DNA of 64,000 bases from an uncultured Desulfurococcales archaeon (lineage in GTDB: Archaea; Thermoproteota; Thermoprotei_A; CAZTBM01; SZUA-1508). Made by a program: the position numbers and the translations under genes. Location of the stretch: assembly GCA_964611985.1 (NCBI GenBank), contig CAZTBM010000005.1, forward strand, positions 12,403 to 76,402, read 5' to 3'. Shown piece by piece: positions 28,483-36,715 of this stretch. The stretch's first letter is position 1; every line of letters begins with the position of its first letter. Below the pieces are notes generated by a model that had not been told where the DNA came from, did no database searches, and saw only the letters and a program-made list of their open reading frames with translations.

Positions 28483-30738
28483 TTAGGCTATTGCTTCACC
28501 ATACGGTTTTTCCTCAATTTCGACTTTAATTCCCTTTAGTATCTCTTCCAGTATTCTTATCGCTCCTTTACGTGACAATAGTCTATTATTATTACCGCAG
28601 TATGGTGTATAAATACATCTGGGGCACCCATCTACACATGAGCATGAAGTTAGCATCTTATATGCTCTCTTTAGGGCTACCTCAAAATTGGAATATAGTA
28701 GTTTTGAAAGTCCACTTCCACCAGGGTTGCTATCATAAACTATTATGTGTCCCGAGGGGTAACTTAATCCTCCAAGATCACTTGGAGAGGCACCAATGAT
28801 AGTTTGAGCTGCCAGTATGATTGCATGTTCAAAAGCGTGATATGCCTTTATTGCATATTCTATGTTCCAATCTTCGATTTGAGGAAGCCTAAATGTCAAT
28901 GCTTTAGTCTTAAATGTGTACTTTATTGGTTTACTTAGTATACTCTCTCCTATGGTTTCATATGACCTATAATCTTTAACTATGAATCCGTATACTTCCT
29001 CTGTAATTTCTATGTCTGCATATTCTATATCCATACCGTATTCTGTACTTCTTCGACTAATCTTCTCAATGGCATTCACTTCTCCAGTGTATAGGGCTAC
29101 AGTATAGTATGGTATAGTATAGGGTAGCTTTTTTACTATGGCTCTTCTCTTATTAATGTCGAAATCTAAAGACTCGTAAAGTTCGCCACCTAAGAGATAT
29201 ATTGCATGTGGATGTAACTCTTTCATAGCCATTGGCATTTCGCGAAAACCTAAATATACTCCCCTATCATCAAATATTGATATTATTATACCGGCCCCTC
29301 TTAGACTGATATTTTCTCGAACAAATCTTATGGCCTCTCTTGTAGGTATGATATATTTCCCTCTACGAGTCAAATAACCTTCTCTTATGAGGTCCCCTGT
29401 GACCTTTTTTGTAAAATCGTCTAACTCCTCTATTCTAATCCATTTATCTCTACTCATACTTATGATTTGGATTCTTGCTACTTCTTCATTTCTTAGTTCT
29501 AACGCTACGTCATCTGGTTTCGAGTTAAAGAATTCAGTAGGATAATTCTCGTAGTAATAACTTATGGGATCTTCACCGAGTATTGTAAAGACATACGATT
29601 TTTGACCTCTTCTACCACATCTACCTATTCTTTGAAGATATCTGGAAAATGTTGGCGGTATATTAACGAGTATTACTGAATCTAAATCTCCTATGTCGAT
29701 ACCAAGTTCTAAGGTGGGTGTTGCCACTACAGCTTTAATAAGCCCTTTCTTGAAGTATTGTTCTACAGTGATCCTAAAGTCTATTCTTAAACCAGCTCTG
29801 TGAACTTCAAGAGGTACATTTCTCTCTGTAGCCATCCTCTTGAGTAATTCTACAGTCTTATGACTATCAGCAAATATTATTGTTTTCAGATTATGCTCAA
29901 GGAGAACTCTGAGTAGTTCTATTGCTTCAGCTAAGCGAGATCTATAAAGAGGCCTTAACATTACATGGTAAATTGGCCCTCTCTTTCCTTTATTTGAAGA
30001 AACTAATTCGACTTTTTCAGAGAATAATTTTGATGCATGTTCTATGGGATTGCCTATGGTTGCTGATGATCCTATGAGAATCGGCCTATCCCTTATTATT
30101 CTCTTTAACCTTCTGATAATGTATGCTACATGACAGCCGAAAACACCTTCATAGGTGTGTAACTCATCTAGAACAATAAACTTTACATTTTGGATAAGCT
30201 CCCTAAATTTACGGACTTCCTGTAATGCTATATGTATCATGTCAGGATTTGTTATTAGGATTTGCGGTGGTTTCTCATATATTCTCCTTCTCTCCTTTTG
30301 CGGTGTGTCACCATCATATATTGCACTGTAGAGGCCAAACATAGGTCCTATTAGTTTCTCTATTTTCCTATACTGGTCTCTTGCTAGAGCCTTTGTAGGA
30401 TAGATTATCAATGCAGTAGTACATGGAGGTTTACGAGTTAAGATGTAGTCAAGTATTGGTAATAGGAAAGCTTCTGTTTTACCTGCACCCGTACCTGCAG
30501 TTATAACTATTGATGACCCATCTTTGATTTTCTTTATTGCTTCAAATTGAAACTTGTATAGTCTCGATATTCCAAGCTTTTTGAGTCTATCCTTCAGCAC
30601 AGGATTTATATCCAATTCGTCGACTGGTGGTCCATACTCTGGTTCCATGGAGGGCTCGTAATGTATGTAGACTATTCTATGGGCTTCATCAGCTTTAATC
30701 TCTTCTATCACTTCATCTACTGGGGGTAACGTACTCAT
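28483..30738 (-). CDS. DEAD/DEAH-box helicase with C-terminal DUF1998 Cys-cluster domain (YprA/MrfA, COG1205-like)
   Basis: Motif I AGTGAGKTEAF, motif II VLDELH, SSAT, motif VI QRIGRCGRRG, and C-terminal CSCVDGCPRCIYTPYCGNNN. Confidence 0.85.
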   Translation of the reverse strand: MSTLPPVDEVIEEIKADEAHRIVYIHYEPSMEPEYGPPVDELDINPVLKDRLKKLGISRLYKFQFEAIKKIKDGSSIVITAGTGAGKTEAFLLPILDYILTRKPPCTTALIIYPTKALARDQYRKIEKLIGPMFGLYSAIYDGDTPQKERRRIYEKPPQILITNPDMIHIALQEVRKFRELIQNVKFIVLDELHTYEGVFGCHVAYIIRRLKRIIRDRPILIGSSATIGNPIEHASKLFSEKVELVSSNKGKRGPIYHVMLRPLYRSRLAEAIELLRVLLEHNLKTIIFADSHKTVELLKRMATERNVPLEVHRAGLRIDFRITVEQYFKKGLIKAVVATPTLELGIDIGDLDSVILVNIPPTFSRYLQRIGRCGRRGQKSYVFTILGEDPISYYYENYPTEFFNSKPDDVALELRNEEVARIQIISMSRDKWIRIEELDDFTKKVTGDLIREGYLTRRGKYIIPTREAIRFVRENISLRGAGIIISIFDDRGVYLGFREMPMAMKELHPHAIYLLGGELYESLDFDINKRRAIVKKLPYTIPYYTVALYTGEVNAIEKISRRSTEYGMDIEYADIEITEEVYGFIVKDYRSYETIGESILSKPIKYTFKTKALTFRLPQIEDWNIEYAIKAYHAFEHAIILAAQTIIGASPSDLGGLSYPSGHIIVYDSNPGGSGLSKLLYSNFEVALKRAYKMLTSCSCVDGCPRCIYTPYCGNNNRLLSRKGAIRILEEILKGIKVEIEEKPYGEAIA

Positions 30739-30756: not shown

Positions 30757-30921
30757 TCATTCTTTTACTCCATGGTATACTAATGCTTTAGAGTGGGGTA
30801 AGTGAACGGCTTCTTCAACCCTAATACCTACTTTACTTAGAGTTACGTATATTCTCTCCTGCCAAACCCTATGCATTCCAGCAAACACCGATATTGTACC
30901 ACCATTCTTAAGTAGCCTAGC
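30757..30921 (-). pseudogene. C-terminal fragment of a disrupted class I SAM-dependent methyltransferase
   Basis: The frame reads ARLLKNGGTISVFAGMHRVWQERIYVTLSKVGIRVEEAVHLPHSKALVYHGVKE*. It continues the N-fragment that ends ...SFLAKLARVL at 32290. An in-frame TGA lies just upstream and there is no start codon. Confidence 0.65.
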
Positions 30922-30938
30922 GTAGCAGTTTCATTTTT

Positions 30939-30957
30939 CGTAAGCTTTAATAGACAT
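30939..30957. repeat. terminal inverted repeat, gene-distal (3') end of the element
   Basis: CGTAAGCTTTAATAGACAT on the plus strand. It overlaps the TnpB-like stop codon. Confidence 0.55.
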
Positions 30958-31975
30958 TTATGGATTTAAGTGCTCTATACGCCAGTATGTATGCTGATAC
31001 TGTATGTGTATCAAGCCTTAGTTTTCTGGCTATTAGCTCAGCATCTTGTGAAGAAAATGCAGGATTTACCTCGCAAAATTTCTTACCTCTCTTCGCTACC
31101 ATTACCTTAGCATGAGTAAGTAATTGTTTCTTAGAGAACTTACTCAACTTTCTATTAATATTTTTATTAGATGTCTTCTTTCTCTTTATCTTTCCTAATT
31201 TCTCAAATACGAAGTACTCGACATCATGGTAACATGCATAATCTATCAACTCTGATAGAGCTTTAAGTCTGATATCCTTAGCTTTCTCCTTAGGAAAGCC
31301 ATGTTGTGTAACTTCTGGGAAATGTTTAACTTTGAAATCCAATAGTTCTCCATTACTGTTAATTATAGCCATGTTTATTCTATCCGTATTTAAATCGAAG
31401 CCAGCAACATGCAGAGATTTTCCTTTTCTGCCAACCTTCTTACCTAGATATTTGGCGTATAGTTCAAGTGGAACATATACATGTATTTTATAATATTCTC
31501 CAATCTCGACTCCATAGCTTACATTCCTCCTAGATAGCTCTTTCAATAGCGGAATGTATCTTTTGCCAAATTTCGCTTTACATTCTATCCATTCATGTCT
31601 TCCATTTGCATGTGGTATCTTTATCTTAACAATAAAGTAATTATCCGAGGGAATTAACCTAATATTCCTGTTCCCCTTTTCAGCGGATTTTCCAACACTG
31701 AAAAGGAACTTTTTCCTTAATTTCAAATAGGGCTGGTTTTCCCACAGCTTAGCTCTTTGGTATGCTGAATGCCCATAGTGTGCGTTAGAGATAAAAGACG
31801 TTAATCTCTTCTCGATATCCTTCCAAGCTAATCCTTTCCTTGTTAAATAATGTGCCATTTTAACCGCATCTCTGAATAGCCTCATGGTATATAGTAATTT
31901 ACTCCTAGCTATATTATCCATAATCAGTAGTTTTCCATTTACTGCTAAGTACTCTTTCCGTGCTTTTCTAGCCAT
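30947..31975 (-). CDS. TnpB-like (IS200/IS605 OrfB family) RuvC-fold protein lacking the zinc-ribbon
   Basis: RuvC-I HVAGFDLNTD, RuvC-II YFVFEKLGKIK, then LSKFSKKQLL...KFCEVNPAFSSQ (TnpB pattern vdPayTSq). The CxxC...CxxC segment is replaced by AELIARKLRL before DTHTVSAYILAYRAL (RuvC-III-like). Confidence 0.7.
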   Translation of the reverse strand: MARKARKEYLAVNGKLLIMDNIARSKLLYTMRLFRDAVKMAHYLTRKGLAWKDIEKRLTSFISNAHYGHSAYQRAKLWENQPYLKLRKKFLFSVGKSAEKGNRNIRLIPSDNYFIVKIKIPHANGRHEWIECKAKFGKRYIPLLKELSRRNVSYGVEIGEYYKIHVYVPLELYAKYLGKKVGRKGKSLHVAGFDLNTDRINMAIINSNGELLDFKVKHFPEVTQHGFPKEKAKDIRLKALSELIDYACYHDVEYFVFEKLGKIKRKKTSNKNINRKLSKFSKKQLLTHAKVMVAKRGKKFCEVNPAFSSQDAELIARKLRLDTHTVSAYILAYRALKSINVY

Positions 31976-32097
31976 AATCTTATCGCCTCTTCAACGGCTT
32001 CTGCTAATGCCCCCTTCTTAACCCCTTTCACTTCCAAAACTTTTCTTCTAAATTCTATTGCTAGATCTTTATCGATTTTAACATGGATTATACTCAT
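31945..32097 (-). CDS. ribbon-helix-helix (CopG/Arc-like) DNA-binding protein
   Basis: MSIIHVKIDKDLAIEFRRKVLEVKGVKKGALAEAVEEAIRLWLEKHGKST shows a beta-strand, helix, Gly, helix pattern. The track ORF extends to 32133, but the internal ATG at 32097 is more plausible. Its 3' end overlaps the TnpB-like ORF. Confidence 0.55.
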   Translation of the reverse strand: MSIIHVKIDKDLAIEFRRKVLEVKGVKKGALAEAVEEAIRLWLEKHGKST

Positions 32098-32257
32098 ACA
32101 CTCAAACACCAAAATACTAATATAAGGCAACACTTATGAATTCTTCGGGTAAGCGAGACTGATGATGCATCGAGGTCAATGAGAATTAATGCACCCACAT
32201 TCGCCGAGGGAGGAAGACCTCCGTAGGAGGGTGTGGGGAAATTCAGGGGTAATGAAT

Positions 32258-32289
32258 ACTTACGTAGGTCTATTAATGTCTACGTAAGT
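32258..32289. repeat. hairpin at the gene-proximal end of the element
   Basis: Perfect 10-bp arms ACTTACGTAG (32258-32267) and CTACGTAAGT (32280-32289) separated by 12 nt, lying exactly at the junction with the methyltransferase sequence. Confidence 0.55.
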
Positions 32290-32841
32290 AAGAACCCTAG
32301 CTAGTTTGGCAAGAAAACTCTCACTATATAATCTCGGATTTTTATTAGGATTCGGACCCCCATCATGGATTATATGATCAAAAACGTCGGGTATCATATC
32401 AACTGCTTTAAGAGCATCAGCCCATGCAACTTTTACTACATTACTATTTAGCGCTTGCATATATTCCTTGATAGGGTTTGAGAATAAAGCTATAGCCAAC
32501 ATAGTTAATGACTTGTCCAATGATAAGTAAAGTGAGGGTGAAGTATTCTTTACTACAATGAAACATGTTCTACCTAAACCTGTACCTACCTCTAACACTT
32601 TTGGTTTAGACTTGACAACCTCAACCCATGATATAATTACCCCTGCAAAGTTCATTTCCAAAATGTTCAGCTCGCCACCTTTATAGCCTAAACCACCAGT
32701 TATTTCATCAATTATCCTTAACTTTTCACCATAGTCTATATGAGCTATATATTTTAGATAATACTGTCTAGCTTTGGCCCTAGTAATTTTATCAGCTGTA
32801 TTGTAATCTCCTTGTTGCAGGTACTTGTATATCTCGTTCAC
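32260..32841 (-). pseudogene. N-terminal fragment of a disrupted class I SAM-dependent methyltransferase
   Basis: Motif I LEVGTGLGRT and post-I/IV region FDHIIHDGGPNP...SFLAKLARVL. The frame then reads 9 element-derived codons (TYVDINRPT) to a stop. The expected LKxGG motif is missing here and is found in the fragment at 30757-30921. Confidence 0.7.
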
Positions 32842-32920: not shown

Positions 32921-35900
32921 GTGCTAACACTTAATATTCTTAAACTTAAGGTTAATGCGTTATTGGTGTACAGTGACTTGATACCACACATAATATTGGG
33001 CTTTTGCCCTAATTGTAATGGTGATATTGAAGCATCAAGGTTAAGGTACGGATTACCCTGTAGTAAATGTTTACCACTGAGCAGAGAAGAGTATGAAAAA
33101 CTGATTAGTTTCGAGAGAGAGGAGAGACTAAATAAGGTACTTAATCTTTTACATAAGAATGGTAATGTAGGCAACTTGTGGAGATTATGGTTTATTGAGG
33201 AAGAATTAAAATCATTTAGTGAGTTCTTTGAAAAGGCGACTAAAAGAAGATTGTGGAGTATTCAGCGAACATGGGCTCGCAGATTATTCCTCGGTGAAAG
33301 CTTTGCAATAATTGCTCCGACTGGTGTGGGTAAAACCACGTTCCTCTCTGCATTTACTTTATATTATGCACTTAAAGGTAAAAAAGTCTACTTTATAGTG
33401 CCTACTAGAGTTCTTCTAAAACAGGTTTATGAGAAGATCTTAAGAATGCTAGAAAATGTTAACTGCCAGCTTAAGATAATAGCTTTAGGCATAAATAATA
33501 TAAATAAAGCTGAATTGGACATCTCAAAGTATGATGTAGTAATATCTTCTGCAACTTATTTATCTAGAAATTTCAAACTATTCACTAGTAGCAAATTTGA
33601 CCTGATAATAGTTGATGATGTCGATGCTCTTCTTAAAAACTCAAAAAATGTTGATAGAGTACTCTTATTACTAGGTTTTAATCAAGACGTGATAGACAAG
33701 GCATATAAACTCGTTATTGCGAAAATCAACCTATTTAAAGCATTGTCTGAAGGTAACAATGAGAATTATAAGAAGTATAAAGAGAAAGTTGAATCACTGA
33801 GAGTTGAAATAGATAAATTCCTTTCAGAGAATAATGTTGGCCAGTTGATAGTATCTAGTGCTACAGGTCGTAGTAGAGGATTAAAGGCTAAAGTATTTAA
33901 GGAGTTATTAGGCTTCGAAGCAGGTTGTGTAATGGAGTACTTAAGAAACGTAACAGACGTGTATGATGAAGCACATAGCCTTAATGAGATGATAGATAAA
34001 ACTATCAGATATGTTAAAATGTTTGGTAAAGGAGGATTAGTGTTTGTAGCACATGACTTAGGGCTTAAAGTCGCTTATATGATCAGAGATAGGCTTGCAG
34101 AGAATGGTGTTAAAGCAGAATTAGCGGCTTCAGGAAGAAGAGGCTACATTGAAAAGTTTAGTCATGGCGAAGTAGAGGTACTTGTAGGTGTCGCTTCATA
34201 CTATGGTGTTATTGTTAGAGGCTTAGACTTACCTCACATAGTTAGATATGCTATTTTCGTCGGTGTACCAAAGTTCAAGATAGACTTCACAAAAACTATA
34301 AGAAACCCCATTAAGCTATTCACAGTCATAAGCATACTCATAGACCTTGTTAATAATGATGGTGACAAAGCAAAACTTGTTGAATATTCAAATAAGCTAA
34401 AGAAACTACTATTCAAGTTAAGCTATAGCGAGATCAGACTAGTACATAAAGCGCTTGAAGGCAAAATAAATGTTGAAGGATACTTAAGGAAAGTTAAAGA
34501 GTTCCTCGAAGAAATAGGAAATTATGTAAATAAGCTTGTCAACACTTATGAGGTTAAAGAGAAGCTCGTTAGAAGCAATAGAATAACAGTTATAGATGAT
34601 AATGGCAAACTTTACGTTGTTGTACCTGATTACTTAACATATATTCAGGCAAGTGGTAGGACGTCACGATTATTCTCTAATGGTATGACCAAGGGCTTAG
34701 CTTTGACATTAGTTGACGATATGAGAGTTTATAATTTGTTACTTGAACAACTCTTACTCCACATAGACTCATTTAGTGCAAAACATGTGTCTGAAGTCAA
34801 CCTAGAAAAACTATTCAATGAGATAGATAGGGATAGAGAAATAGTAAAGGAAATGTTGATTAATGATACAGGAGTTAAAGTAAAAGATCCATTAAAGAGC
34901 GCTTTACTCATAGTGGAATCGCCTAACAAAGCCAGAACTATAGCTAGCTTCTTTGGTAAGCCTTCAAAAAGGAGATTTGGCAAGATAGTAGTTTACGAGG
35001 TTGTATTAGGCGATCCCATGTTAGGTACAGAGGACTACATGCTATCAATAGTTGCAACAAGAGGACATATACTTGACCTAACAACAGACAATAAAGGGTA
35101 CCATGGTGTACTACTAGAACCCGAAATAATGCCCATATACGAGACCATAAAGAGATGTCGATCCTGTGGATACCAATTCACTAAAGGAGACATTTGTCCA
35201 CGCTGTAAATCAAGTAATATCAGAGATTCTATTGAAATAGTACACCTACTAAGAAAGTTAGCCATGGAAGTAGATGTAGTGTTTATAGGTACAGACCCTG
35301 ATACTGAAGGAGAGAAGATAGCTTGGGATGTTTATGTGTCAATTCAACCTTATGCAAAGAACGTATATAGAGTGGAGTTTCATGAAATCACAAGAAATGC
35401 TATCGTATGCGCACTTACTAATCCTAGAATGATAGATGAGAAGCTTGTTGAGGCTCAGATTGTTCGTAGGGTTGAGGATCGTTGGATTGGTTTTGAGCTT
35501 TCATCTAGGTTGTGGAGGGTTTTCGGAAAACACTGGCTATCAGCAGGAAGAGTACAAACACCAGTACTAGGATGGATAATACAAAGACAGAAAGAATGGA
35601 AAGAAGGAAGAAGAGTTTTTGTTAAGTTAAATTACGAAAAGGGGATATCAGTTACATTAGCATTAGAGCCTAAATTAAGGGCGGTAAAGGAGGAATTACC
35701 CAAATTAAACAGAGCAAACATACTTCACATAGAGGATTATATTGAAGAGAAAAATCCGCCTCCACCATATACGACTGATAGTATATTATTCGATGCCTCT
35801 TGGAAATTAAGACTAGACGCAACTAAGGCCATGAAGATACTTCAAGAACTATTCGAAGCCGGATTAATAACTTATCATAGAACTGATAGTATTCATGTGT

Positions 35901-36715
35901 CAGGTAAAGGTTTCCAGATAGCTCAACAGTACTTAGCTTCACAGGGCTTACATCATCTTATTCAGAACAGGAGTTGGGGCCCTCATGGGACTCATGAGTG
36001 TATAAGACCCACGAGACCTATTGATGCGGAAACCTTGAGAAGAATGATTGTAGATGGAACCTTTAGAGTTCATGTTAGGCTATCTGAAATACATTTGAAG
36101 GTGTATGACTTGATCTTTACAAGGTTCATGGCAAGTCAAATGAAACAAGCAAAGGTGAAAAGAAGGAGGGTCATGCTTATGATAGGTGATAGAGTAGAGT
36201 CATTTGATGAAATAATTGATGTCTTAGAAGAAGGCTATACTCGCATATTAAGTGTTGACGTGAATAAGGAGTTGGAGAACCTGAGAGTTGGAGATATACT
36301 GAAACTGGTCGATTACACGGTATGGAAGGGCTCACTCTACCCGCTATATAAACAAGGTGACGTAGTAAAGTTGATGAAGGAGCGCGGTCTAGGTAGGCCG
36401 TCAACATACACAAAAATACTCGCATCATTATTACGACATGGATATCTATTTGAAACTAAGAGAAAATATCTCGTAGCCACGAAAATGGGCACTCTAGTAT
36501 ATGAATATTTAACAGCTAATTTTGACCAACTAGTTTCAGAGGAAAGAACAAGAATAGTTGAAGAAGTAATGAGGCTAATAGAAGAGGGCACCTTAAGCGC
36601 AAAACAAGTATTAAGAATGTTCCTAGAGGAGATCTCAAGCATAACAAGTGAAAAGCCGGAGAAAATAATAGACATAAGAGAAACCATATCTAAACTCTCA
36701 ATTACGGTTGCTTAG
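32921..36715 (+). CDS. rgy: reverse gyrase (helicase-like domain fused to type IA topoisomerase)
   Basis: N-terminal zinc finger CPNCNGDI...LPCSKC, helicase motif I APTGVGKTT and DDVD, a Toprim/topo IA part with IVESPNKARTI, a second zinc ribbon CRSCGY...CPRC, then TDPDTEGEKI and ITYHRTDS (catalytic Tyr). The true start is probably the TTG at 32978 (MIPHIILGFCPNC). Confidence 0.95.
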   Translation: MLTLNILKLKVNALLVYSDLIPHIILGFCPNCNGDIEASRLRYGLPCSKCLPLSREEYEKLISFEREERLNKVLNLLHKNGNVGNLWRLWFIEEELKSFSEFFEKATKRRLWSIQRTWARRLFLGESFAIIAPTGVGKTTFLSAFTLYYALKGKKVYFIVPTRVLLKQVYEKILRMLENVNCQLKIIALGINNINKAELDISKYDVVISSATYLSRNFKLFTSSKFDLIIVDDVDALLKNSKNVDRVLLLLGFNQDVIDKAYKLVIAKINLFKALSEGNNENYKKYKEKVESLRVEIDKFLSENNVGQLIVSSATGRSRGLKAKVFKELLGFEAGCVMEYLRNVTDVYDEAHSLNEMIDKTIRYVKMFGKGGLVFVAHDLGLKVAYMIRDRLAENGVKAELAASGRRGYIEKFSHGEVEVLVGVASYYGVIVRGLDLPHIVRYAIFVGVPKFKIDFTKTIRNPIKLFTVISILIDLVNNDGDKAKLVEYSNKLKKLLFKLSYSEIRLVHKALEGKINVEGYLRKVKEFLEEIGNYVNKLVNTYEVKEKLVRSNRITVIDDNGKLYVVVPDYLTYIQASGRTSRLFSNGMTKGLALTLVDDMRVYNLLLEQLLLHIDSFSAKHVSEVNLEKLFNEIDRDREIVKEMLINDTGVKVKDPLKSALLIVESPNKARTIASFFGKPSKRRFGKIVVYEVVLGDPMLGTEDYMLSIVATRGHILDLTTDNKGYHGVLLEPEIMPIYETIKRCRSCGYQFTKGDICPRCKSSNIRDSIEIVHLLRKLAMEVDVVFIGTDPDTEGEKIAWDVYVSIQPYAKNVYRVEFHEITRNAIVCALTNPRMIDEKLVEAQIVRRVEDRWIGFELSSRLWRVFGKHWLSAGRVQTPVLGWIIQRQKEWKEGRRVFVKLNYEKGISVTLALEPKLRAVKEELPKLNRANILHIEDYIEEKNPPPPYTTDSILFDASWKLRLDATKAMKILQELFEAGLITYHRTDSIHVSGKGFQIAQQYLASQGLHHLIQNRSWGPHGTHECIRPTRPIDAETLRRMIVDGTFRVHVRLSEIHLKVYDLIFTRFMASQMKQAKVKRRRVMLMIGDRVESFDEIIDVLEEGYTRILSVDVNKELENLRVGDILKLVDYTVWKGSLYPLYKQGDVVKLMKERGLGRPSTYTKILASLLRHGYLFETKRKYLVATKMGTLVYEYLTANFDQLVSEERTRIVEEVMRLIEEGTLSAKQVLRMFLEEISSITSEKPEKIIDIRETISKLSITVA

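Follow-up and report, generated by a model that had tools for sequence, protein, structure and literature searches.

A mobile element with an RHH gene, a zinc-finger-less TnpB-like gene and a conserved structured RNA in an uncultured Desulfurococcales archaeon

The stretch of 64,000 nucleotides analysed here (referred to as the window) comes from an uncultured Desulfurococcales archaeon (contig CAZTBM010000005.1) and contains a gene for a TnpB-like protein, which lacks a zinc finger and is preceded by a small gene of the ribbon-helix-helix (RHH) type. A first-pass annotation of this locus, made from the letters alone, had seen in the pair a possible very compact RNA-guided nuclease, or else a repressor-type derivative with an unusual regulator, the RHH gene standing in the place of a TnpA transposase, and had supposed that a guide-RNA scaffold overlaps the 3' end of the larger gene. 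Two questions are raised by this arrangement: whether both genes belong to something that moves and, if the protein is guided by an RNA, from which part of the locus that RNA would be read.

The compact TnpB relative and its RHH neighbour are indeed present, but the pairing itself had already been published. The RHH/MazE-TnpB group was described as the archaeal branch of the TnpB major clade RIIIr-4, a clade without C4 zinc finger in which the catalytic Asp of RuvC-III is replaced by His; in this branch, a small RHH or AbrB/MazE gene precedes that of TnpB (Altae-Tran et al., PNAS 2023, PMC10691335). In the same work the group was regarded as immobilised or exapted, a toxin-antitoxin role was proposed for it with the help of a co-folding argument, it was suggested that its "long 3' UTR" (untranslated region) might encode a guide, and a rearranged but working active site was argued for (PMC10691335). 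A review from 2026 cites for the group only the toxin-antitoxin hypothesis of Altae-Tran et al., and no experimental paper on RHH/MazE-TnpB was found in the literature search.

The reading that we consider probable is that window positions 30919-32298 are a non-autonomous insertion of the IS607/IS605 superfamily, which carries the RHH gene, a D-E-H TnpB gene and a divergent omega-like RNA, and which lies inside a methyltransferase gene. Purifying selection is observed on all three parts of the element, that is, the TnpB-like gene, the RHH gene and the RNA, and an RNA-guided function is the best reading of the TnpB-like protein that the sequence evidence offers.

Ends, mobility and possible transposase of the element

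The limits of the element were defined by homology among five copies found at different sites (the window copy, L025, L027, L028 and L029). The four comparison loci belong to other metagenomes, with 75-90% protein identity and unrelated flanks. In the orientation of the genes, homology starts directly after AGG with GTTCTTACTTACGTAG and stops with GAAACTGCTACGCTAGG, the boundary being ambiguous by the trinucleotide CCT (+ strand), which is found at both junctions. The tnpB-side end had been estimated in the first-pass annotation at about 25 nt past the stop codon, in good agreement with the 28-31 nt measured; folding detected no stable hairpin at this end. The host bases beside it follow the motif G-C-C-(T/G), conserved at this junction in 17 independent loci, and other subfamilies have GACT or GGGT/GGGC at the same place. 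The last three bases of the opposite, RNA-side end recur at the tnpB-side junction (CCT/GCCT, ACT/GACT, and GGT with GGGT or GGGC). A 6-bp target duplication in the window (GCTAGG) was also considered, and it was ruled out because GCT is the conserved end of the element in other copies.

The insertion has split a host gene. Upstream of the element, the gene at 32260-32841 encodes an S-adenosylmethionine (SAM) methyltransferase without its C-terminus, and the missing C-terminus is found downstream of the element as an open reading frame (ORF) of 43 aa (30757-30888). In a genome of the same genus (G001) the methyltransferase is intact, with 237 aa, and adjoins the helicase gene; when position 32299 is joined to 30918, an uninterrupted methyltransferase frame of 234 aa is obtained in the window. 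Related to this, a paralogue of the element in the source genome (L003, on contig C28) is inserted in an M20 peptidase gene, which it cleanly interrupts at ortholog residue 169; ACT is found at each of its junctions. Neither insertion was accompanied by a long target duplication, and joining the flanks directly recovers each host ORF (the junctions read CCT/CCT in the window copy, ACT/ACT in L003).

Besides, the source genome contains a protein-less derivative of 233 bp (C39:12-244), which originates from the paralogue on C13 and lies at a different genomic site. It consists of 67 bp of the tnpB-side end (94% identity) fused directly to the RNA module of 167 bp (100% identity). The sharp ends, the two gene disruptions and the miniature derivative contradict the term "immobilised": at least in the present lineage, the RHH-TnpB genes sit in a mobile element.

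No gene for a recombinase or transposase is found inside the element or nearby, as had been noted in the first-pass annotation. Its further proposal, that the RHH gene is present instead of a TnpA, holds for the Y1 type of TnpA but not for the serine type. Among 41 related genomes, 11 of which carry the TnpB-like family and 30 of which do not, the Y1 TnpA (PF01797) is absent from the source genome and from all 11 carriers and is present in 10 of the 30 non-carriers; action of a Y1 TnpA in trans was ruled out by its absence from every carrier genome. The serine recombinase (PF00239), on the other hand, occurs in 10/11 carriers (the exception being a genome only 59% complete) versus 8/30 non-carriers.

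The only PF00239 copy of the source genome (C37:12687-13268) lies directly upstream of a canonical TnpB with zinc finger, and both genes form an autonomous IS607-type element of 1938 bp (C37:12678-14615), with a serine recombinase of 193 codons and a TnpB of 410 aa. This element and the L003 subfamily have common ends. At the end of tnpB-side type the flanking gact is followed by.TT.AATAG, or (G/A)TT(C/G)AATAG, and the other end, which corresponds to the RNA-side end in RHH-TnpB elements, finishes in CGGGCAACCACT, being composed of CCGTGCCCG, a loop and CACGGGCAACCACT up to the boundary. Four occurrences of the 14-mer CACGGGCAACCACT are found in the genome. The three that were examined, on C28 (the L003 copy), C37 (right end of the IS607-type element) and C44 (beside a TnpB fragment), are all ends of elements, and the fourth lies on C8. 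The presence of serine TnpA in the carriers, together with the ends common to L003 and the IS607-type element, indicates that the element is a non-autonomous copy, although one with an unusual layout. The matching trinucleotide at the junctions is what strand exchange by a serine recombinase at a short shared core should leave, and it is equally expected if the motif doubles as target motif and right-end cleavage motif.

An IS607-type pair was also seen close to a related element in another uncultured archaeon (L035:3-1497). There, some 200 nt separate the RNA-side end of an AbrB-TnpB element from a serine TnpA of 202 aa and a canonical TnpB outside it, both of which are oriented like the RNA of that element; the TnpB-like protein of this AbrB-TnpB copy is truncated to 281 aa.

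The structured RNA at the far end

The guide scaffold proposed in the first-pass annotation was not recovered at the 3' end of the TnpB-like ORF, where positions 30919-31100 (-) fold no better than shuffled sequences (z -1.32) and show no conservation beyond the coding constraint. A covarying RNA was found instead at the other end of the element and on the opposite strand, in the stretch between the element end and the putative RHH promoter, whose G+C content is 53% versus about 36% around it. The window RNA (32150-32298, + strand) has a minimum free energy of -53.7 kcal/mol (z -4.68), and 0/200 shuffles are as good. Rfam holds no family matching it, with only noise-level matches to miRNA and sR28.

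This RNA module was detected with nhmmer in 26 loci, with RHH and AbrB partners alike, and copies with a synonymous-site difference of 31-37% still share 88-92% identity in it. A covariance model across homologous loci, which the first-pass annotation had named as a way to check its proposal, was built from 24 loci. According to this model, the RNA adjoins the four paralogues of the source genome, including L004, which is outside the seed, and it is present in 47/73 fetched loci (25 outside the seed), in every case on the antisense strand and 180-400 nt ahead of the TnpB-like start. In the MAFFT alignment 97.8% of the cells pair, versus 42-60% with slid partners, double compensatory changes are observed in 10 of 15 pairs, and the covariation score is 0.679, versus values not above 0.14 in the slid controls.

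The probable direction of the RNA was deduced from wobble pairs and folding energies. Cells compatible with G.U pairs number 44 on the strand opposite to the genes and 15 on the gene strand (two invariant U.G pairs excluded), and RNAalifold yields -21.6 kcal/mol for the outward strand versus -11.5 kcal/mol for the gene strand. A sense-strand reading of the upstream RNA was ruled out by these wobble counts and energies, with a single dissenting locus that is considered below. In canonical IS607 and IS605 elements, the omega RNA is read out of the right end, and it is to this right end that the one common to L003 and C37 corresponds; the common end provides independent support for an RNA directed outward.

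The 3' part of the molecule is a closing stem around a long hairpin, and the 3' strand of this stem ends at the element boundary; no conservation is seen past 32298 in the aligned copies. The terminal stem covaries between subfamilies, as GGG/CCC, GGA/UCC, CCG/CGG and GUGG/CCAC. Repeated GAUGA/CUGAUGA motifs are also present, which by analogy may recall kink-turns. The conserved folded RNA, read out of the end opposite to the 3' end of tnpB, is probably the guide RNA of the nuclease.

Two back-to-back TATA-like boxes separate the RNA from the RHH gene (Table 1), and they are putative promoters. The spacing between the proximal box and the RHH start codon suggests a leaderless mRNA. In the protein-less derivative on C39, only the distal one of the two boxes is kept, together with the RNA.

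Two additional observations were made on this module. The RNA model also gives one weak orphan match (32.7 bits, E 0.0016), located between chemotaxis-like genes of the source genome (C9:23842-23986, - strand); it has a TATA-like box ahead and no TnpB-like gene nearby, lacks the terminal hairpin, and could represent either a decayed remnant or a free-standing relative of the RNA. In L003 (L003:2830-3107, on C28) the terminal hairpin CCCGTACCCG...CGGGCACGGG holds about 260 extra loop bases in comparison with its relatives L049 and L050, and for this reason the L003 element reaches 1678 bp.

The TnpB-like protein and its small partner

More than 150 homologues of the TnpB-like protein, with 335-350 aa, are found in Thermoproteota and other archaea, cultured carriers being for instance Metallosphaera yellowstonensis MK1, Stygiolobus sp. 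and a Thermococcus strain, and three further paralogues (36-46% identity) are encoded in the source genome (1.65 Mb, about 90% complete). The dN/dS of the gene is 0.11-0.14 in comparison with homologues of 88-90% identity. This low ratio and the number of homologues indicate that the ORF is a real gene. In terms of profiles, the protein reaches 33.8 bits with NCBIfam TIGR01766 (cut-off 32) and 34 bits with NF040570, under the cut-off of 100, and the profile of the family matches the RuvC-II region of Cas12 structures (E 4.5e-7). The AlphaFold2 (AF2) model, with a predicted local distance difference test score (pLDDT) of 83, finds in Foldseek its best Protein Data Bank matches in Cas12f, Cas12k and the TnpB of ISFba1 (E 2e-7 to 3e-4). 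Kinship to TnpB is weak by sequence, yet consistent across profiles and predicted structure, and the identification made in the first-pass annotation is borne out. The Pfam entry of the family is PF27229 (SSO2105_N); a match to the Pfam entry Hydrolase_3 was judged spurious.

In an alignment of 18 members, the invariant residues include D194, N196, D198 and R199 (GFDLNxDR), E258 (FVFE), and D322 and H324 (LDxHT). None of the 18 members contains CxxC pairs or a CxxC...CxxC zinc ribbon, and residues 309-319 (DAELIARKLRL) are predicted by AF2 as a helix in place of the zinc finger, as had been proposed for AELIARKLRL. The hhalign comparison with one canonical TnpB places D194 at RuvC-I and E258 at RuvC-II, while RuvC-III is not alignable across the zinc-finger deletion. 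When LD(322)xH(324)TxSAY is aligned on the DRDxNAA motif, the invariant H324 occupies the position of the canonical RuvC-III Asp, an assignment made by motif alignment only. Two of the three catalytic residues proposed in the first-pass annotation (the Asp of GFDLNTD and the Glu of FVFEKL) are in this way retained, but D322 of LDTHT is not at the RuvC-III position. The predicted active site is a RuvC of D-E-H type, where the canonical RuvC-III Asp is replaced by His (H324 in this protein).

The small frame appears in the ORF listing as 31945-32133, though the ATG at 32097 is a likelier start than the GTG at 32133. The resulting product of 50 aa agrees with the RHH partner of about 50 aa, overlapping the larger gene, that had been described previously. 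Its RHH matches in Pfam are below threshold but recurrent (RHH_6 in 6/12 members, and also RHH_3, 56B_RHH and RHH_1), and the dN/dS of the gene is 0-0.05. An overlapping upstream gene of RHH or AbrB/SpoVT type is found in the same place in nearly all of the 49 loci examined; in the paralogue L004 of the source genome, for instance, the partner is of AbrB type. A small DNA-binding gene upstream of a larger one and overlapping it is the layout of type II toxin-antitoxin systems. Taken together, the TnpB/Cas12-type RuvC fold, the lack of a C4 zinc finger, the change of Asp to His and the upstream RHH/AbrB gene are those of clade RIIIr-4, and the TnpB-like protein is a member of its RHH/MazE-TnpB branch.

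Related to the protein, the closest homologue on a genome contig (L029:3001-4025, 75% identity, in a metagenome-assembled genome of Thermoproteota) has a broken TnpB-like frame, the first ORF of which has 71 aa, with the RHH gene and the RNA intact.

Table 1. Position of the element, its components and the split host gene in the window
Feature	Position	Strand	Basis or remark
Whole mobile element, 1380 bp	30919-32298	.	Homology limits among 5 copies; join of the flanks restores the methyltransferase ORF
tnpB-side end, 28-nt tail past the stop codon	30919-30946	-	Consensus CTATGAAAAnTGAAACTGyTAC, conserved across subfamily loci
Host GCCT beside the tnpB-side end; candidate target motif or target-adjacent motif (TAM), or crossover site	30915-30918	+	Conserved junction motif
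TnpB-like protein without zinc finger, 342 aa	30947-31975	-	ORF, homologues, profiles and AF2 model; D194, E258, D322/H324; GNRN at 101-104
RHH-type small DNA-binding protein, 50 aa	31945-32097	-	Overlap of 31 nt between its 3' end and the TnpB-like start
Two back-to-back TATA-like boxes between RNA and RHH gene	32117-32140	.	Position conserved across 24 loci
Proximal TATA-like box, CCTTATATTAG	32127-32117	-	About 25 nt ahead of the RHH ATG
Distal TATA-like box, TTCATAAG	32140-32133	.	About 22-26 nt ahead of the RNA's first conserved helix
Structured RNA gene, omega-RNA-like scaffold	32150-32298	+	nhmmer, covariance model, covariation and fold energy; 5' limit approximate
RNA core	32153-32257	+	Part of the structured RNA
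RNA terminal stem and hairpin	32245-32298	+	Ends at the element boundary
Candidate guide segment in the host flank, AGCTAGTTTGGCAAGAAAAC	32299-32318	+	Suggested by where the last stem lies, assuming read-through of the RNA past the element end
SAM-methyltransferase gene, 5' part	32299-32841	-	Ortholog aa 3-186 correspond to window 32841-32290, 66% identity
SAM-methyltransferase gene, 3' part	30757-30918	-	Ortholog aa 184-235 correspond to window 30918-30763, 75% identity

The split methyltransferase is flanked on one side by a reverse gyrase gene (32921-36715, + strand, 1264 aa), a marker of hyperthermophiles, and on the other by the gene of a DEAD/DEAH-type helicase with a C-terminal Cys cluster (28483-30738, - strand, 751 aa). 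As for the surroundings of the paralogues, a 96-aa N-terminal fragment of a HAD-type hydrolase lies upstream of the copy L002 (L002:2763-3053, on C2), and its frame enters the element end, the residues ...APFTSSVA being encoded by element sequence. No C-terminal part of this hydrolase was found on the other side of L002, and the context of this copy is more rearranged than in a simple insertion.

Comparison with known systems, proposed mechanism and alternative explanations

The element resembles the published RHH/MazE-TnpB group (PMC10691335) in its archaeal origin, a protein of about 340 aa without C4 zinc finger, the His at the position of the RuvC-III Asp and the RHH or AbrB/MazE gene directly upstream. 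However, the published group was considered immobilised, whereas here sharp ends, split host genes and a protein-less derivative are observed; and the possible guide was placed there in a long 3' UTR, whereas here the 3' tail has only 28 nt and the RNA is located upstream on the opposite strand. With the OMEGA systems of IS200/IS605 and IS607 elements (such as ISDra2 and SisTnpB1 of Sulfolobus islandicus), the element shares the TnpB fold, a last RNA helix that abuts the transposon end and makes a guide from the flank possible, and a short conserved motif at the opposite junction, and one subfamily has ends matching those of a resident IS607-type element. In those systems the RNA lies on the tnpB strand and overlaps the 3' end of this gene, whereas the RNA described here is separate, divergent and far from that end; further differences are the D-E-H site, the lack of a zinc finger and the additional small DNA-binding protein.

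The solo-tnpB elements of IS1341 type and their miniatures are comparable in that they have no transposase gene, use a transposase in trans and give rise to short protein-less derivatives which keep the ends. The partner transposase here appears to be a serine recombinase and not a Y1 TnpA, and the miniature retains a complete RNA gene together with the TATA box that belongs to it. With respect to the IS607 family, no serine-recombinase TnpA is found inside the element, which is at best a non-autonomous member. TldR proteins are also TnpB derivatives linked to a partner other than a transposase, with a possible regulatory use of the RNA guide. Unlike the present protein, they have lost the catalytic residues, are fixed host genes and have promoters as the targets of their guides; in the present case the acidic residues are retained (D194, E258, D322 and H324 being invariant for the site), and a mobile element is involved whose guide would come from the flank.

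If the element is a non-autonomous insertion of the IS607/IS605 superfamily, the following mechanism may be proposed. Transcription of the RNA would start at its own TATA box and continue outward across the element end as far as the flanking DNA, and this read-through would provide a flank-derived 3' guide similar to that of a canonical omega RNA. The TnpB-like protein would bind the RNA and recognise the vacated donor site by means of the 4-nt motif (GCCT in this case) and a match to the guide, after which the site would be cut or marked and the element restored by repair. Movement would be catalysed in trans by the IS607-type serine recombinase, which would explain the identical trinucleotide at both junctions, and the RHH (or AbrB) protein might repress the divergent promoter region or restrain the nuclease. 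A wider hypothesis is put forward here tentatively, as a possibility and not as the expected outcome: the zinc-finger-less D-E-H TnpBs of hyperthermophilic archaea would be active RNA-guided nucleases, whose guide RNA has a promoter of its own, runs opposite to tnpB, leaves the element at its far end and is perhaps shaped by kink-turn-like GAUGA motifs; a serine recombinase would move the element and the RHH/AbrB protein would gate the system.

Several observations weigh against this interpretation. The four full-length copies in the source genome are old paralogues (36-46% identity), none of them shows signs of recent transposition, and recent movement is seen only in the C39 derivative. The ends of the window subfamily (...GAACCCT) are only loosely similar to the end of the C37 element (CAACCACT), the strong match belonging to a paralogue that is 41% identical and not to the window copy. 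The junction trinucleotide could equally be read as a 3-bp target duplication made by an unknown enzyme. As regards the RNA, its expression and direction are deduced from covariation and wobble counts, and L029 favours the other strand in one helix. Finally, the replacement of the RuvC-III Asp by His and the loss of the zinc-finger/TNB domain make cleavage uncertain.

This last point is also the basis of a different explanation, according to which the protein is a nuclease-dead RNA-guided DNA binder, similar to TldR or to Cas12k/Cas12m, that binds without cutting and, for example, represses or marks a site or recruits a recombinase. The missing zinc-finger/TNB domain would otherwise load the substrate into RuvC, and there are precedents of exapted inactive TnpBs (PMC10691335). 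However, D194, E258, D322 and H324 are all invariant across distant members, which fits a rearranged working site, and the element is mobile rather than a fixed host regulator; this explanation appears to us quite improbable. It is very improbable, in our opinion, that the upstream module acts as DNA, that is, as a transposon end with recombinase-binding hairpins and RHH/AbrB operators, there being no guide RNA at all or one at the 3' end of the ORF. The outermost hairpin does look like the subterminal hairpins of IS200/IS605-type elements and folds well as DNA on both strands, and the repeated TCATC motifs could be protein-binding sites. Nevertheless, the long-range helices contain many compensatory changes and the G.U-type exchanges favour one strand, which is the signature of an RNA; the module, with about 150 nt, is far longer than the 28 nt of the other end, the same motifs are kept with either an RHH or an AbrB partner, and the 3' region of the ORF has neither significant structure nor a match to the covariance model.

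The toxin-antitoxin module proposed by Altae-Tran et al. (2023) would have the TnpB-like nuclease as toxin and the RHH/AbrB protein as antitoxin, so that the pair would persist by addiction and not by RNA-guided homing. The folds of RHH and AbrB/MazE are those of classic antitoxins, the small gene is always upstream of the large one and overlaps it, the distribution is patchy (11/41 relatives carry the family) and the co-folding argument has been published (PMC10691335). We regard it as unlikely to be the main function of the locus, since it leaves unexplained the conserved covarying RNA, the defined ends and insertions into genes, and the derivative that keeps ends and RNA without either protein; moreover, no match to PADLOC or to profiles of toxin-antitoxin families was obtained. 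A PHROGs search gave nothing useful. Both ideas are partly compatible, and a toxin-antitoxin function may coexist with the mobile, RNA-carrying element that we favour.

Regarded as such an element, the locus gives a concrete anatomy to a TnpB branch that had been published only as a prediction, as an immobile toxin-antitoxin pair with no guide identified: the limits of the element, a candidate for the target motif, another for the guide RNA with a defined 3' boundary, and a likely class of transposase are now available for it. Should the ribonucleoprotein prove active, it would represent a thermostable RNA-guided nuclease of some 340 aa that dispenses with the zinc-finger domain and has His in its RuvC site, a case bearing on how far the Cas12/TnpB scaffold can be reduced. 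If the proposed mechanism is true, this would be a new OMEGA architecture, with one of the smallest RNA-guided nucleases, and the omega RNA would not need to be tied to the 3' end of tnpB, which matters for guide-RNA searches in "orphan" TnpB branches.

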